Source: Escherichia phage vB_EcoM-G28. From it: a stretch of 64,000 nt of DNA. The stretch lies in the sequence record NC_054916.1; one strand, written 5' to 3'. Within the stretch, counting starts at the first letter, position 1, and each line of letters starts with the position of its first letter. This document shows, piece by piece, positions 15,276-50,728 of the stretch. A program made the position numbers and the translations under genes. The notes below the pieces were generated by a model. It had not been told where the DNA came from. It searched no databases and saw only the letters and a program-made list of their open reading frames with translations.

Positions 15276-16784
15276 ATGGATATTAAAGTACATTTTCACG
15301 ACTTCAGTCATGTACGCATCGATTGTGAAGAGAGCACGTTCCACGAATTAAGAGATTTCTTTTCGTTTGAGGCCGATGGATATAGATTTAACCCTCGCTT
15401 CAGATATGGCAACTGGGATGGACGAATCCGTCTTTTAGATTATAATCGTCTTCTTCCATTCGGCTTAGTCGGGCAAATTAAAAAGTTCTGTGATAACTTT
15501 GGCTATAAAGCCTGGATTGACCCACAAATTAACGAAAAAGAAGAATTATCAAGAAAAGATTTTGATGAATGGCTTTCTAAATTAGAAATCTATTCAGGAA
15601 ATAAAAGAATTGAACCACACTGGTATCAAAAAGATGCAGTGTTCGAAGGATTAGTTAATCGTCGTAGAATTCTTAATCTTCCAACATCTGCAGGTAAATC
15701 TTTAATTCAGGCTCTGCTTGCGCGATATTATTTGGAAAATTATGAAGGTAAAATTCTTATCATTGTTCCAACAACTGCTCTGACAACTCAGATGGCTGAT
15801 GACTTTGTTGATTATCGTTTATTCAGTCACGCAATGATAAAGAAAATTGGTGGCGGAGCATCAAAAGATGATAAATATAAAAATGATGCACCAGTCGTTG
15901 TTGGTACATGGCAAACTGTAGTAAAACAACCAAAAGAATGGTTCTCACAGTTTGGAATGATGATGAATGATGAATGCCATCTTGCTACAGGAAAAAGTAT
16001 TTCATCTATCATATCAGGTTTAAATAACTGCATGTTCAAATTTGGTCTATCTGGTTCATTACGTGACGGCAAAGCCAATATCATGCAGTATGTTGGAATG
16101 TTTGGCGAAATATTTAAGCCAGTAACGACTTCTAAGTTAATGGAAGATGGGCAAGTAACTGAGCTAAAAATTAATAGTATTTTTCTTCGTTATCCTGATG
16201 AGTTCACTACTAAATTAAAGGGAAAAACTTACCAAGAAGAAATAAAAATTATTACTGGGCTCAGTAAAAGAAATAAATGGATAGCTAAATTAGCTATTAA
16301 GCTTGCGCAAAAAGATGAAAACGCTTTTGTCATGTTTAAACATGTATCACATGGTAAAGCTATTTTCGATTTAATTAAAAATGAATACGATAAAGTTTAT
16401 TACGTATCAGGGGAAGTTGATACCGAAACCCGCAATATAATGAAAACCTTAGCTGAAAATGGCAAAGGAATAATTATAGTAGCTAGTTATGGTGTATTTT
16501 CTACTGGTATTTCAGTTAAAAATCTGCATCACGTTGTTTTAGCGCACGGTGTTAAATCAAAAATCATTGTATTACAAACAATCGGTCGTGTATTACGTAA
16601 GCATGGTTCTAAGACAATAGCAACAGTCTGGGATCTTATAGATGACGCGGGCGTAGTTTCTAAATCAAAAACATCTTCTAAAAAATACTCGCATTTAAAC
16701 TATCTTTTAAAACATGGACTTGATCGTATTCAGCGTTATGCTGATGAAAAGTTTAATTATGTGATGAAAGAGGTTAAACTTTGA
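15276..16784 (+). CDS. uvsW: UvsW DNA/RNA helicase
   Basis: 502 aa; size and position as T4 UvsW. Confidence 0.9.
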   Translation: MDIKVHFHDFSHVRIDCEESTFHELRDFFSFEADGYRFNPRFRYGNWDGRIRLLDYNRLLPFGLVGQIKKFCDNFGYKAWIDPQINEKEELSRKDFDEWLSKLEIYSGNKRIEPHWYQKDAVFEGLVNRRRILNLPTSAGKSLIQALLARYYLENYEGKILIIVPTTALTTQMADDFVDYRLFSHAMIKKIGGGASKDDKYKNDAPVVVGTWQTVVKQPKEWFSQFGMMMNDECHLATGKSISSIISGLNNCMFKFGLSGSLRDGKANIMQYVGMFGEIFKPVTTSKLMEDGQVTELKINSIFLRYPDEFTTKLKGKTYQEEIKIITGLSKRNKWIAKLAIKLAQKDENAFVMFKHVSHGKAIFDLIKNEYDKVYYVSGEVDTETRNIMKTLAENGKGIIIVASYGVFSTGISVKNLHHVVLAHGVKSKIIVLQTIGRVLRKHGSKTIATVWDLIDDAGVVSKSKTSSKKYSHLNYLLKHGLDRIQRYADEKFNYVMKEVKL

Positions 16785-17473
16785 ATTATAAATTAATATA
16801 TGATAATTTAATTAATAGAGCCCAGAATCGGGCTCGCCTTAATGGATACACTGAAACACATCATATAATTCCTAGATGTATGGGTGGTACAAATGATAAG
16901 TGTAATTTAGTAGAACTAACGGCTGAAGAACATTTTATAGCCCATAAACTTTTAGCTAAAATTCATCCAAACCATTACGGTATAATTAAAGCTGTTATAT
17001 GTATGGGGATGAATTCAAATACTCATGAAAGACACGTCAATAAATCTTACGCATGGGAACGTCGTAAAATGGCAGAACTTCAATCCGGCGAAGGTAATCC
17101 ATTTTACGGAAAACACCATACGGAAGAACATAAACAATATATGTCAAAACTCATGAAAAGTCGTCCAATTACATGGGGAAATAAAATTAGTAAAACTAAA
17201 AGAATGAACCCAACGAAATGGACTGAAGAAGCTAAAAGATTACATTCAATCAATCAATCGGGTAAAAATAACGGCATGTATGGAAGGAAACATTCCGCTA
17301 AATCTATTCAGAAAATTAAAGATAACATGCCAGATAATTCAGGAGCTAATAACCCAGCTGCTAAACCTATAGAAGTAAATGGTGTTAAGTATAAATGTAT
17401 GAAAGATGCTTCTAAAGCTACTGGATTATCAATGTACAAACTAAGAATACTTAGAAAAACAGTTAATTTATAA
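16781..17473 (+). CDS. HNH-family free-standing homing endonuclease (MobE paralog), TTG start overlapping the uvsW stop
   Basis: 230 aa; N-terminus ETHHIIPRCMGG...N...EH is an HNH motif and aligns residue-for-residue with the ORF at 45047..45778; first codon is TTG. Confidence 0.75.
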   Translation: MNYKLIYDNLINRAQNRARLNGYTETHHIIPRCMGGTNDKCNLVELTAEEHFIAHKLLAKIHPNHYGIIKAVICMGMNSNTHERHVNKSYAWERRKMAELQSGEGNPFYGKHHTEEHKQYMSKLMKSRPITWGNKISKTKRMNPTKWTEEAKRLHSINQSGKNNGMYGRKHSAKSIQKIKDNMPDNSGANNPAAKPIEVNGVKYKCMKDASKATGLSMYKLRILRKTVNL

Positions 17474-43868: not shown

Positions 43869-45047
43869 TTAAAAATATTTTTTAAAACTCATCATAACTT
43901 TATCATCAACATCATTATCAATCTGTGCAACAAGGTAAGATGACAGTTCTACTTCTTGTGGCGCGGATTGAACATTATCAGAATTAAGATATTCACGAAT
44001 CCAAGGATATGGATGTTTAACCGGAGCATCGGTAATTGGGCATGGAAGACCGCACTGTTTCATACGAGATACAGTTAAGTAATCAATAAAGCTCCACATG
44101 CTATTTGTATTTAATCCAGGAACATCGCCATCTTTAAATAAATGAACTGCCCAATCTTTTTCTTGGCGGTTAACTTCCATGAAAATATCAACTGCTTCTT
44201 GTTCACACTCTTGAGCAATTTTAACCCATTCATCGCCATCAGTACCGGATTGAAGTTGACGAATAATATATTGGGTGCCTTTAAGGTGAAGCTGCTCATC
44301 ACGTGCAATGAACTTCATAATCTTGGCATTACCTTCCATGATTTCCATGTTCTTATGGAAGTTAAAGGTACATGCAAAAGATACATAAAAACGAATAGCT
44401 TCTAAGGCATTAATAACGTGCAAACAGAGGTAAAGAGATTTCATTAGTGCTCGTTTAGCTTCGGCTTCTTGTTTAATAGCTCGATTTAAACGAAAAACAG
44501 CATCAGGAGATTCTTTAGCTAGTTCTGTAAATTCTTTAGCGTTTTCCCATTCACGGGTTTTAGTCAGAACATCATCATAATAACGTCCAATTGATTCAGC
44601 ACGTTTCATGATAGCTTCATCTAATACAATCTCATCAAATACCTTTGACGGATCAGTATAAAGATTTCGCATGATATGTGTATATGAACGACTATGAATA
44701 GTTTCACTAAAAGTCCATGTAGCAACCCATGTATCAAGACTTGGGTCTGAAATTAATGACATAAGTACAGCAGATGGCGCACGACCCTGAATGCTATCTA
44801 GAAGTGATTGATACTTCAGATTATTAGTAAAAATATCTTGCTGATATTGAGGAAGCTTGTTAAATTGTGCAGCATCCATCATTAAGTTTACTTCTTCAGG
44901 ACGCCAGAAAAATGACAACTGCTTTTCGGTTAAATCTTCAAAAACTTTATGACGTTGAATATCATAACGCGCAATACCAAGACCTGAACCGAAGAACATA
45001 GGTTCTTTTAAAACATCAACTGGATTTGTATTAAAAACTGTAGACAT
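43869..45047 (-). CDS. nrdB: Ribonucleotide reductase small subunit, uninterrupted (no intron)
   Basis: 392 aa from MSTVFNTNPVD; continuous reading frame; ATG overlaps the mobE stop. Confidence 0.9.
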   Translation of the reverse strand: MSTVFNTNPVDVLKEPMFFGSGLGIARYDIQRHKVFEDLTEKQLSFFWRPEEVNLMMDAAQFNKLPQYQQDIFTNNLKYQSLLDSIQGRAPSAVLMSLISDPSLDTWVATWTFSETIHSRSYTHIMRNLYTDPSKVFDEIVLDEAIMKRAESIGRYYDDVLTKTREWENAKEFTELAKESPDAVFRLNRAIKQEAEAKRALMKSLYLCLHVINALEAIRFYVSFACTFNFHKNMEIMEGNAKIMKFIARDEQLHLKGTQYIIRQLQSGTDGDEWVKIAQECEQEAVDIFMEVNRQEKDWAVHLFKDGDVPGLNTNSMWSFIDYLTVSRMKQCGLPCPITDAPVKHPYPWIREYLNSDNVQSAPQEVELSSYLVAQIDNDVDDKVMMSFKKYF

Positions 45048-45778
45048 TAATTTTTCCTCTTTAAAATTCTGCCGCGTTTCCAACCTGGCGGTATAATATC
45101 ATCTTTACCTATAAGCGTGCATTCACTTCCATTATTAATCCATTTCTTACCGCGGATTCCTTTATAATCTCTTGGTTGTATTTTGTCAAACTTTGCATCA
45201 AGTTGATATGCCCAACGAAATCCATAGGCATATTGAAATTTACCCTCAGCACAATATTTGATATTTGACCCGTTTCCATTAACTGATCTGGACGCTGCCG
45301 CAATAGAGTGAAAGGTTTCTATGAAATCCCCATCTAATGAGAATTTATGTATTTCGATAGATGGGCATGCATACCTATTCACGTTTGATACATGTTGTTT
45401 AGTTTCGTTTTTATGATGCTTGCCTAACATTCCTCTAGGATGAGGATTATTTTTCCAATATTTCTTAAAGAAATCAGAATTAGCTTTAGCAAATAATTTT
45501 CTGTGCAAGCTATACAATCTGTTATTAATTCTATTACCAGCTTTATCTGTTGCCATTAACGTTAACGCAGAGGCAAGACCAAAATGGCCTTCATTTATCT
45601 TGCATAGTAATAGATGCGCTATAAAATGTTCTCTAGCTGTTAATTCAACTAAATTTTCTTTATCATCAGAACCTCCCATGCATTTAGGGACTATATGATG
45701 TGTCTCTTTATATTCGGATAAAGGTTCCCGAGCCTGAGCTCGGGAAATTAGATCATTATAGATTTTTTGATAATTCAT
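45047..45778 (-). CDS. mobE: HNH-family homing endonuclease in the nrdA-nrdB intergenic position (MobE/Hef-like)
   Basis: 243 aa; HNH motif ETHHIVPKCMGG...N...EH; ATG overlaps the nrdA stop (TAATG). Confidence 0.8.
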   Translation of the reverse strand: MNYQKIYNDLISRAQAREPLSEYKETHHIVPKCMGGSDDKENLVELTAREHFIAHLLLCKINEGHFGLASALTLMATDKAGNRINNRLYSLHRKLFAKANSDFFKKYWKNNPHPRGMLGKHHKNETKQHVSNVNRYACPSIEIHKFSLDGDFIETFHSIAAASRSVNGNGSNIKYCAEGKFQYAYGFRWAYQLDAKFDKIQPRDYKGIRGKKWINNGSECTLIGKDDIIPPGWKRGRILKRKN

Positions 45779-48599: not shown

Positions 48600-48911
48600 T
48601 TATACCGCCATTTTTCCTTTCAAGACACCGTGGGATTGATAATCTTTGAGAACGAAATCTTTAGGTCTAAGTTTAAGAACATATTTTAATTGTTCTTTAG
48701 TAGAAAGATATCGGAATTTATAAGGTAGACCACTTATTACCAGCTCACAAAGCTCTTTAGGTTCACGCCTCAAAATTTCTTTACATTGTTCTACGTGATT
48801 CATATAGATATGAGTATTACCACCAGAAAATATCAAATCTCCTGGAATAAGATTACACATCTTAGCTACAATATGAACTAACGTAGCATATGATGCAATA
48901 TTAAACGGTAG
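48600..48911 (-). CDS. td: Thymidylate synthase, exon 2
   Basis: 103 codons from LPFNIASYATLVH; the leading Met in the ORF track is an artefact spanning the intron's last G. Confidence 0.9.
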   Translation of the reverse strand, partial: LPFNIASYATLVHIVAKMCNLIPGDLIFSGGNTHIYMNHVEQCKEILRREPKELCELVISGLPYKFRYLSTKEQLKYVLKLRPKDFVLKDYQSHGVLKGKMAV

Positions 48912-49356
48912 CATTATGTTCAGATAAGGTCGTTAATCTTACCCCGGAATTATATCCAGCTGCATGTCACCATGCAGATCAGACTATATCTCCAACTTGT
49001 TAAAGCAAGTTGTCTATCGTTTCGAGTCACTTGACCCTACTCCCCAAAGGGATAGTCGTTAGGCATTTATGTAGAACCAATTCCATTTATCAGATTTTAC
49101 ACGATAAGTAACTAATCCAGACGAAATTTTAAAATGCCTTTTCCATCTCTTTTCAAAATCTTTAGCACTTCCTACATATACTTTATTGTTTAAAGTATTT
49201 TTAATCTGATAAATTCCGCTTTTCATAAATACCTCTTTAAATATAGAAGTATTATTAAAGGGCAGTCCTACAATTTAGCACGGGATTGTCTACTAGAGAG
49301 GTTCCCCGTTTAGATAGATTACAAGTATAAGTCACCTTATACTCAGGCCTCAATTA
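48912..49356 (-). ncRNA. Group I self-splicing intron of td, about 445 nt, with a deleted endonuclease ORF
   Basis: Intron 5' end TAATTGAGGCCTGAGTATAAGGTGACTTATACTTGTAATC and 3' end ...CTGAACATAATG match the T4 td intron as I recall it; exon 1 ends in U. Confidence 0.85.
49059..49226 (-). pseudogene. I-TevI homing endonuclease remnant (55 aa, internal in-frame deletion)
   Basis: MKSGIYQIKNTLNNKVYVGSAKDFEKRWKRHFK joined directly to ISSGLVTYRVKSDKWNWFYINA; the catalytic and DNA-binding regions between them are missing. Confidence 0.85.

Positions 49357-50728
<1,372 letters not shown>

Follow-up and report, generated by a model that had tools for sequence, protein, structure and literature searches.

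A td group I intron of a T4-like phage with most of its I-TevI gene deleted, probably still splicing and probably no longer homing

The td gene of Escherichia phage vB_EcoM-G28 (NC_054916.1) carries a group I intron from which 570 nt of the I-TevI homing endonuclease gene are missing; "the window" below means the whole stretch of 64,000 nucleotides of this phage that was analysed. Very likely this is a mobile td intron with a dead endonuclease gene, which would have kept splicing and lost homing, and which represents an established, recurrent haplotype. The case is real but ordinary, a textbook intermediate in the decay of a homing endonuclease.

The genome is Tequatrovirus-like. Over 24 kb around the locus the closest records, those of phages SYGD1 and EC121, share 96% identity, and a search of public records gave none identical to this 24-kb region. 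The gene order is that of T4 (frd, td, nrdA.2-like, nrdA.1-like, nrdA), with the whole set on the minus strand, and td is divided as follows.

49357..49905, minus strand: td exon 1, 183 codons, ending ...CTTGGGT (ORF list and alignment to T4 td)
48912..49356, minus strand: td group I intron, 445 nt (alignment to T4)
48600..48911, minus strand: td exon 2, 103 codons and the stop (ORF list and T4 alignment)

The intron begins with TAATTGAGGCC after ...CTTGGGT and finishes with ...ACATAATG before CTACCG. These junctions are identical to those of T4, as a preliminary description made from the letters of the window had proposed. Joined, the exons encode a thymidylate synthase of 286 residues with an intact frame. 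The 44 nucleotide differences from T4 td lead to only 8 amino-acid differences from T4 Td, and this strong synonymous excess indicates that td is under purifying selection. Within exon 2 there are 2 mismatches to T4 over about 245 nt and then an abrupt divergence at 48600..48666 (minus strand), these last 67 nt holding 17 mismatches and 6 amino-acid changes; the step looks like a recombination or co-conversion boundary. An exonic C to A change at position -22, by the I-TevI cleavage motif CAACG, was considered as a marker of ORF loss and rejected, since full-length introns of IME340, T6, KMB39 and EC121 adjoin the same CGA codon.

No intact I-TevI was found by tblastn within the 64-kb window, and no endonuclease genes flank td, its neighbours being frd and the nrdA.2-like (DUF5496) and nrdA.1-like (DUF4326) genes. 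Elsewhere in the window, nrdB is one unbroken ORF (43869..45083, minus strand) and hence has no intron. Between nrdA and nrdB lies a 243-aa ORF (45047..45778, minus strand) with HNH and NUMOD1 matches, at the position of mobE or hef in relatives. A 230-aa ORF at 16781..17473 (plus strand), 3' of a 502-aa helicase-like ORF (15276..16784), has an HNH-like motif and, by tblastn, weak similarity (E 1e-5) to the part of I-TevI that binds DNA; it probably encodes a homing endonuclease of the free-standing kind.

The intron was aligned by MAFFT to that of T4 (NC_000866.4) and numbered according to the canonical 1016-nt intron, the numbering being validated on the published P6 pair G78:C865 (PMC2729099). 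In the T4 record itself (NC_000866.4/AF158101.6) the intron has one extra T (GGACTTGCC) and so measures 1017 rather than 1016 nt; this T is absent from M12742, T4T, T6 and every other td intron. An apparent 1-nt deletion at GGACT-GCC relative to NC_000866.4 was rejected for this reason, the extra T being peculiar to that record.

Compared with T4, one block of 570 nt (nt 231-800) is absent, all of it within the I-TevI ORF (nt 132-869). The preliminary description had put the intron at about 445 nt against about 1 kb in T4, and the alignment gives 445 against 1016 nt, so the two introns are not of equal length. The sequence CATTTTAAA occurs just twice in the canonical intron, at nt 222 and nt 792, a spacing of exactly 570 nt, and what is left of the gene is the following.

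49059..49226, minus strand: I-TevI remnant of 55 codons, in frame, with the native stop just past the 3' strand of P6
49128..49136, minus strand: deletion junction, with the sole remaining copy of the 9-bp direct repeat CATTTTAAA (T4 alignment)

The remnant joins I-TevI residues 1-33 in frame to residues 224-245. The earlier proposal of an in-frame deletion of about 570 bp between direct repeats, fusing the first 33 to the last 22 or so residues, is therefore exact in each part. Set against the full-length introns of T6, IME340 and EC121, the 445 nt that remain show three differences only: the loss of the 570 nt, a further deletion of 1 nt (see below) and a G to A change at 49140, which is synonymous and is shared only with one ENA contig (L276). 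At more than 99% identity, the relation of stub and intron to T4 is one of homology and not of chance resemblance.

From the position of the junction we infer that slipped mispairing or illegitimate recombination between the two 9-bp repeats removed the 570 bp. The repeats encode two HFK tripeptides (within RHFK, I-TevI residues 30-33 and 221-224). A direct repeat of 9 bp is not unusual, shuffled sequences usually giving 9-10 bp. The argument for a repeat-mediated mechanism thus rests on the position of the junction and on its recurrence, because the repeat is no longer than expected by chance in an AT-rich kilobase. CATTTTAAA is the longest direct repeat with both copies in the dispensable loop, spanning most of the ORF; a 12-bp repeat is present elsewhere in the intron, where a deletion would remove core helices.

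The stub agrees residue for residue with the I-TevI catalytic domain (structure 1MK0) over its positions 1-33 and with the end of the DNA-binding domain (structure 1I3J) over positions 30-55; tblastn gives the same result. Missing are I-TevI residues 34-223, which comprise the linker and the zinc finger together with the greater part of both the GIY-YIG and the DNA-binding domains. Full-length I-TevI matches the Pfam families GIY-YIG, PF22635 (zinc finger), NUMOD3 and PF20987 (positions 1-51), compared with the N-terminal third of GIY-YIG and positions 29-51 of PF20987 in the stub, which has no zinc-finger or NUMOD3 match and whose GIY-YIG match runs partly over unrelated C-terminal residues. 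It contains neither a complete GIY-YIG domain of about 90 residues with the distal catalytic residues, which we take to be E75 and N90, nor the linker with zinc finger and the full DNA-binding domain (minor-groove helix and helix-turn-helix). Judged by its sequence, the stub cannot be counted among the functional I-TevI/GIY-YIG endonucleases. Autonomous homing has probably been lost, because the stub is without most of the catalytic domain, the linker and zinc finger, and most of the DNA-binding domain; the intron would no longer cut intron-less td genes or drive its own spread.

The ribozyme core is placed as follows.

49265..49356, minus strand: 5' half of the ribozyme, intron nt 1-92 (helices located on the sequence, covariation among 11 introns, fold)
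49343..49348, minus strand: guide sequence
49325..49342, minus strand: P2
49313..49318, minus strand: P3, 5' strand
49281..49308, minus strand: P4-P5
49278..49279, minus strand: P6, 5' strand
49265..49271, minus strand: P6a, 5' strand
48912..49077, minus strand: 3' half of the ribozyme (helices located on the sequence, covariation, fold, Rfam on ORF-less relatives)
49071..49077, minus strand: P6a, 3' strand
49063..49064, minus strand: P6, 3' strand
49053..49057, minus strand: P7, 5' strand
49041..49052, minus strand: P7.1
49024..49037, minus strand: P7.2
49013..49018, minus strand: P3, 3' strand
48993..49012, minus strand: P8
48982..48986, minus strand: P7, 3' strand
48960..48977, minus strand: P9
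48944..48959, minus strand: P9.1
48923..48943, minus strand: P9.2
48912, minus strand: terminal G

Fourteen core helices (P1-P9.2, with P7 as the pseudoknot) were written by hand on an alignment of 11 td introns of about 79-100% identity. Pairing holds in 99.4% of cells across these and drops to 30-45% in controls with the partners shifted by 1-3 columns; seven pairs show compensatory changes. In 500 shuffles the observed values were unmatched on four of five measures, the count of further pair types being reached in 54 of the 500. All 75 core pairs form in the window, from whose sequence the structure was derived. The helices P1 to P9 of a group I intron, including the P3/P7 pseudoknot, are present, as are the U.G at the 5' splice site in P1 and the terminal G. 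The last six bases of exon 1 form P1 with the guide sequence (exon ...UUGGGU with GCCUGA, intron nt 9-14), and the intron ends in ...AUAAUG. The unconstrained minimum-free-energy fold of the 445 nt recovers P2, P3, P4, P5, P6, P6a, P7.1, P7.2, P8, P9 and P9.1; the remnant folds apart, as its own domain on P6a (z = -3.2). The ribozyme core, whose flanks the preliminary description had reported as present, is identical to that of the full-length T6, IME340 and EC121 introns, and no lesion touches it. A C to A change at 48979 (J7/9) was considered as core damage and rejected; it is a common polymorphism in full-length T6, IME340 and EC121 introns, and it matches the Rfam consensus. By insertion site and by homology over the whole ribozyme, the intron is a member of the T-even td intron family.

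The strands GUAGGAC (49265..49271) and GUUCUAC (49071..49077) of P6a close the loop that bears the ORF, and the deletion lies wholly in that loop, between G78 and C865 of the first P6 pair. Most of the I-TevI ORF has been placed in a non-essential loop in T4, with its 3' end alone in structured RNA (PMC2988022). Because the deletion is confined to this dispensable loop, folding of the ribozyme and its excision from the td pre-mRNA should be preserved, and splicing is probably retained.

No part of the window matches the Rfam group I model RF00028 at its gathering threshold (50 bits). In E-value mode the intron scores 40.9 bits (E 5.7e-9) with a partly mis-registered alignment, and the intron of phage F1, which has the same deletion, scores 40.5 bits. 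The shortfall is attributed to the penalty for the 187-nt insert in P6a and not to loss of the core, since ORF-less td introns with a near-identical core and a loop as small as a tetraloop reach 64-74 bits, above the threshold. The model misses td introns that bear the ORF or a remnant of it.

A further lesion, overlooked in the preliminary description, is the 1-nt deletion upstream of the remnant, which affects two overlapping elements.

49250..49256, minus strand: damaged late-promoter/operator box, AATAATA in place of AATAAATA (intron nt 101-108) in full-length introns
49217..49264, minus strand: hairpin sequestering the Shine-Dalgarno sequence (GAGG, 49232..49235) and the start codon of the ORF (RNAfold and covariation)

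A late promoter and an I-TevI operator are known upstream of the ORF (PMC2988022). Their box would lie at nt 101-108, as suggested by the T4 late consensus TATAAATA and the likeness of CCCTTTAATA to the homing-site sequence CCGTTTAATA. All 12 full-length introns compared carry TTTAATAAATAC, including lineages of about 79% identity from Salmonella, Proteus, Citrobacter and Pseudomonas phages; the window reads TTTAAT-AATAC at the box, with one A lost. The motif sits in the 5' arm of the hairpin, which shows covariation in divergent lineages and whose role in sequestering the Shine-Dalgarno sequence and start codon has been described in T4 (PMC2988022). By RNAfold the hairpin has -16.4 kcal/mol in T4, -11.7 in the window and -19.7 in F1, and the loss of the A would thus weaken it in the window.

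Two haplotypes were distinguished. Type I, the 570-nt deletion with one A lost, is found in the window, e11/2, FL18 and six contigs, and type II, the 570-nt deletion with A101C, in F1/FN and three contigs (L275, L278 and L279). All T4-type introns with the 570-nt deletion (13 contexts, two intron backgrounds) bear one or other of these two independent point changes in the box, whereas the box is invariant in every full-length intron examined, where neither the type I nor the type II change occurs. Among 191 phage records with the 76-nt region, the box region of the window is matched exactly in three type I records only and that of F1 in three type II records only; the full-length records among the matches listed differ from either query by one box position alone. 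The exception is a divergent contig (L286), deleted but with the box intact. Larger natural deletions of the ORF remove the box too. The type II contig L275 (ENA ERZ28624691) shows further decay, with one T lost between the Shine-Dalgarno sequence and the ATG and an A to G change 3 nt ahead of the 3' splice site (ACATAGTG).

For two first hits to fall within a box of 8 nt in an unconstrained insert of 187 nt, the probability, reckoned post hoc, is about 0.002. The common target looks like the promoter/operator rather than the hairpin, since the two changes shift hairpin stability in opposite directions (-11.7 and -19.7 kcal/mol). It is conceivable, though we consider it rather doubtful, that silencing of the late promoter was selected after or before the loss of the autorepressor endonuclease, the cassette then spreading by recombination in the intron arms. 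Promoter loss before ORF decay, or hitch-hiking in a recombining cassette, are other possible accounts. Against strong selection on the box stands the finding that T4 viability was not obviously affected when a middle promoter replaced the operator (PMC2988022). If selected silencing did take place, it would be a natural instance of compensatory regulatory decay once a selfish gene has been lost, and of spread without drive by a mobile intron that is defunct.

The deletion allele is neither unusual nor new, being already present in GenBank in four phages and on many contigs. The same junction was found in six records that represent e11/2 (vB_EcoM_112; NC_024125), F1 and FN (NC_054912, MZ170041) and FL18 (PP400780), a count reached with a protein-cluster look-up and with a junction query of 43 nt, whose shortness kept it from seeding on full-length introns. 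In these records the annotation of the stub reads "homing endonuclease" or "endonuclease I-TevI" (gp237 in NC_054912, e112_249 in NC_024125, XAO14861 in PP400780). Such a label on a protein of 55 residues is misleading, given that it is without most of both domains. The e11/2 genome paper makes no comment on the stub, and in the accessible literature no account was found of this allele or of natural ORF-deleted td introns.

The exact 55-aa protein occurs on at least 23 contigs (NCBI, ENA and Logan) and is indexed in 31 blocks of the collection. Six sequence variants of the stub were seen in the cluster, one of them on 37 contigs, with single-residue substitutions. On the ENA contig L276 the intron is identical to that of the window, as is exon 2 over the whole aligned exon. 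The ten other loci with the stub all keep the two td exons as intact ORFs. The exact junction 31-mer had no match in IMG/VR and JGI metagenome contigs; 253 loci with a junction 17-mer were rejected as chance matches, the td core motif being present in none of them.

More widely, the T4 intron matches 258 phage records, 197 of which cover at least 80% of it. The 3' ribozyme core is found in about 237 phage records and the ORF interior in only about 187, giving roughly 36-50 records with ORF-deleted td introns (roughly 15-20% of td-intron records), a range made uncertain by the chance that megablast overlooks ORFs of the greatest divergence. Four size classes of ORF-deleted td intron were recognised: 445-446 nt (this allele), 319-320 nt (HP3, PYps55T and 235Ecol030PP), 262-263 nt (215Ecol030PP and BYEP01, with P6a capped by a UUUG loop) and 254 nt (HMD-9, in which P6a is different yet paired, GUUC-UUUU-GAAC).

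The deletion haplotype appears to be established and circulating among T4-like phages. The deleted introns differ from that of the window at 0-7 of 445 nt, whereas the exons of the carriers differ by 19-80 of 549 nt in exon 1 and by up to 74 nt in exon 2; in full-length introns, likewise, the intron is far more conserved than the exons. Most likely the allele would move across td backgrounds by ordinary homologous recombination in the intron arms, since all td introns are about 99% identical. In e11/2 the type I pair of lesions is found on a U5-type td gene with a U5-type 3' half of the intron, compared with T6-type in the window and FL18; e11/2 departs from U5 itself at 3 of 300 nt in exon 1 and at 2 positions in the intron. 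Its lesion pair would reflect either recombination within the intron arms or parallel mutation.

The deletion also seems to arise repeatedly at the same repeat. The divergent contig L286 (Logan SRR28523098, intron from locus position 771) is deleted at the same RHF codon pair and has many substitutions in core and stub, with a stub junction of ...RHFN|ISGG...; by its sequence, this deletion is independent in origin, so the RHF repeat appears to behave as a recurrent deletion hot spot. The RHF duplication and the 570-nt spacing are kept in six of the seven I-TevI orthologs that were compared, the repeats measuring 5-9 nt at the DNA level; a second RHF motif was not located in the remaining one, PspYZU05. 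With so few variable sites, spread by recombination and repeated origin cannot be separated.

Of the other explanations, inefficient splicing deserves the most attention. The phage might then have a crippled td gene or pseudogene and rely on host thymidylate synthase, and td is indeed non-essential in T4. The weakening of the hairpin from -16.4 to -11.7 kcal/mol fits such a reading, as does the stub ORF, whose frame continues across the 3' strands of P6a and P6 as far as the native stop: ribosomes translating the stub might enter P6a/P6, leaving splicing reduced rather than normal. T4 hairpin mutants splice poorly, and T4 without the hairpin shows less splicing and has a thymidine-dependent phenotype (PMC2988022). 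The window, however, has an unaltered ribozyme core, and both exons are in frame with a strong synonymous excess; the other carriers are likewise intact despite exon divergence of up to about 15%, pointing to continued selection on the spliced product. Since the synonymous excess is strong and the exons are intact in all carriers, the split td gene is probably still expressed and hence spliced, and we regard a crippled td gene as unlikely. That the short intron is an artefact of assembly, sequencing or laboratory work, such as a collapsed repeat or an engineered construct, is far less probable still. ORF-deleted td introns are common laboratory constructs, the break-points fall on a direct repeat, and the 1-nt deletion sits among consecutive A's, where errors are typical. 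Yet a 9-bp repeat cannot cause an assembly collapse, the same junction recurs in four phages sequenced independently in different countries and on at least 23 contigs from unrelated samples, and the 1-nt deletion is common to e11/2, FL18 and six metagenome loci. Nor is this a laboratory T4 derivative, since the genome around the locus reaches no more than about 96% identity with T4 or with any record.

Two readings give the short form a different standing. The 55-aa product might have been kept for a function, as a small DNA-binding or dominant-negative peptide acting against a co-infecting I-TevI, or because translation to the native stop aids folding of the intron. The deletion is in frame, with the start codon, Shine-Dalgarno sequence and stop retained, and the sequence recurs on many contigs with single substitutions and in a divergent lineage too. 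But an in-frame outcome is expected one time in three, and here it is forced by a repeat that encodes the same tripeptide twice in the same frame. A chain with only 33 of about 92 catalytic-domain residues and 22-26 residues from the end of a DNA-binding domain of 116 is unlikely to fold, its variants include the non-conservative K33T, K46N and S19N, its promoter box is damaged, and other natural ORF-deleted td introns (254-320 nt) have no start codon at all. A retained function is very unlikely on this evidence. Least credible is that the 445-nt form is ancestral, or an intermediate in the gain of the ORF. ORF-less group I introns are thought, in the general model, to pre-date endonuclease invasion, and minimal td introns do exist; the stub, however, is 100% identical to both ends of a two-domain protein and joined at a duplicated tripeptide, the retained 445 nt match full-length introns apart from two point lesions, and full-length ORFs are present in all deeper intron lineages.

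Decay of the endonuclease gene in a td intron that would still splice is the reading that we prefer, and it may be set beside several known systems. The td intron of T4 and T6 with I-TevI (subgroup IA2; M12742, NC_000866) has the same host gene, insertion site, junctions and core; unlike it, the window has an intron of 445 rather than 1016 nt, an I-TevI gene of 55 rather than 245 codons and a box short of one A. The nrdB intron of T4 is the textbook precedent, likewise splicing with an endonuclease gene inactivated by a large internal deletion: its I-TevIII is truncated and inactive, with an intact ortholog in RB3 (PMC2988022), and the neighbouring mobE can mobilise this intron in trans (PMC2790892). 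It differs from the td intron of the window in host gene, in its HNH endonuclease and in the deletion itself. The introns of e11/2, F1/FN, FL18 and the ENA and Logan contigs are closest, with the same junction, the same stub or single-residue variants of it, and the same or a neighbouring box mutation, although the td exons of these carriers differ from those of the window by 3.5-15% or more. In HP3, HMD-9 and similar phages, as in laboratory ORF-deleted constructs, the ribozyme is kept and the endonuclease gene is gone from the P6a loop, as in the window. These other classes are without the promoter, the start codon and nearly all of the ORF, whereas the window keeps both ORF ends and the translation signals, which would make it a less advanced stage of decay.

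In the cycle of Goddard and Burt, the endonuclease gene decays after saturating its target population while the self-splicing element persists (PMC5009752). The window fits the degeneration phase, and goes beyond that account in that several stages of decay coexist within one close group of phages and the decayed allele is found in many exon backgrounds. In vB_EcoM-G28 itself, td should still be expressed, and the phage would have lost one active selfish element. Intron homing has the td intron with I-TevI as its reference system, and natural alleles between the fully mobile and the ORF-less forms provide direct material with which to test the cycle of gain, decay and loss in phages. This allele and its relatives suggest that the same repeat-mediated deletion recurs, that an intron with a dead endonuclease persists and is found in many td backgrounds, and that the promoter/operator is also struck.
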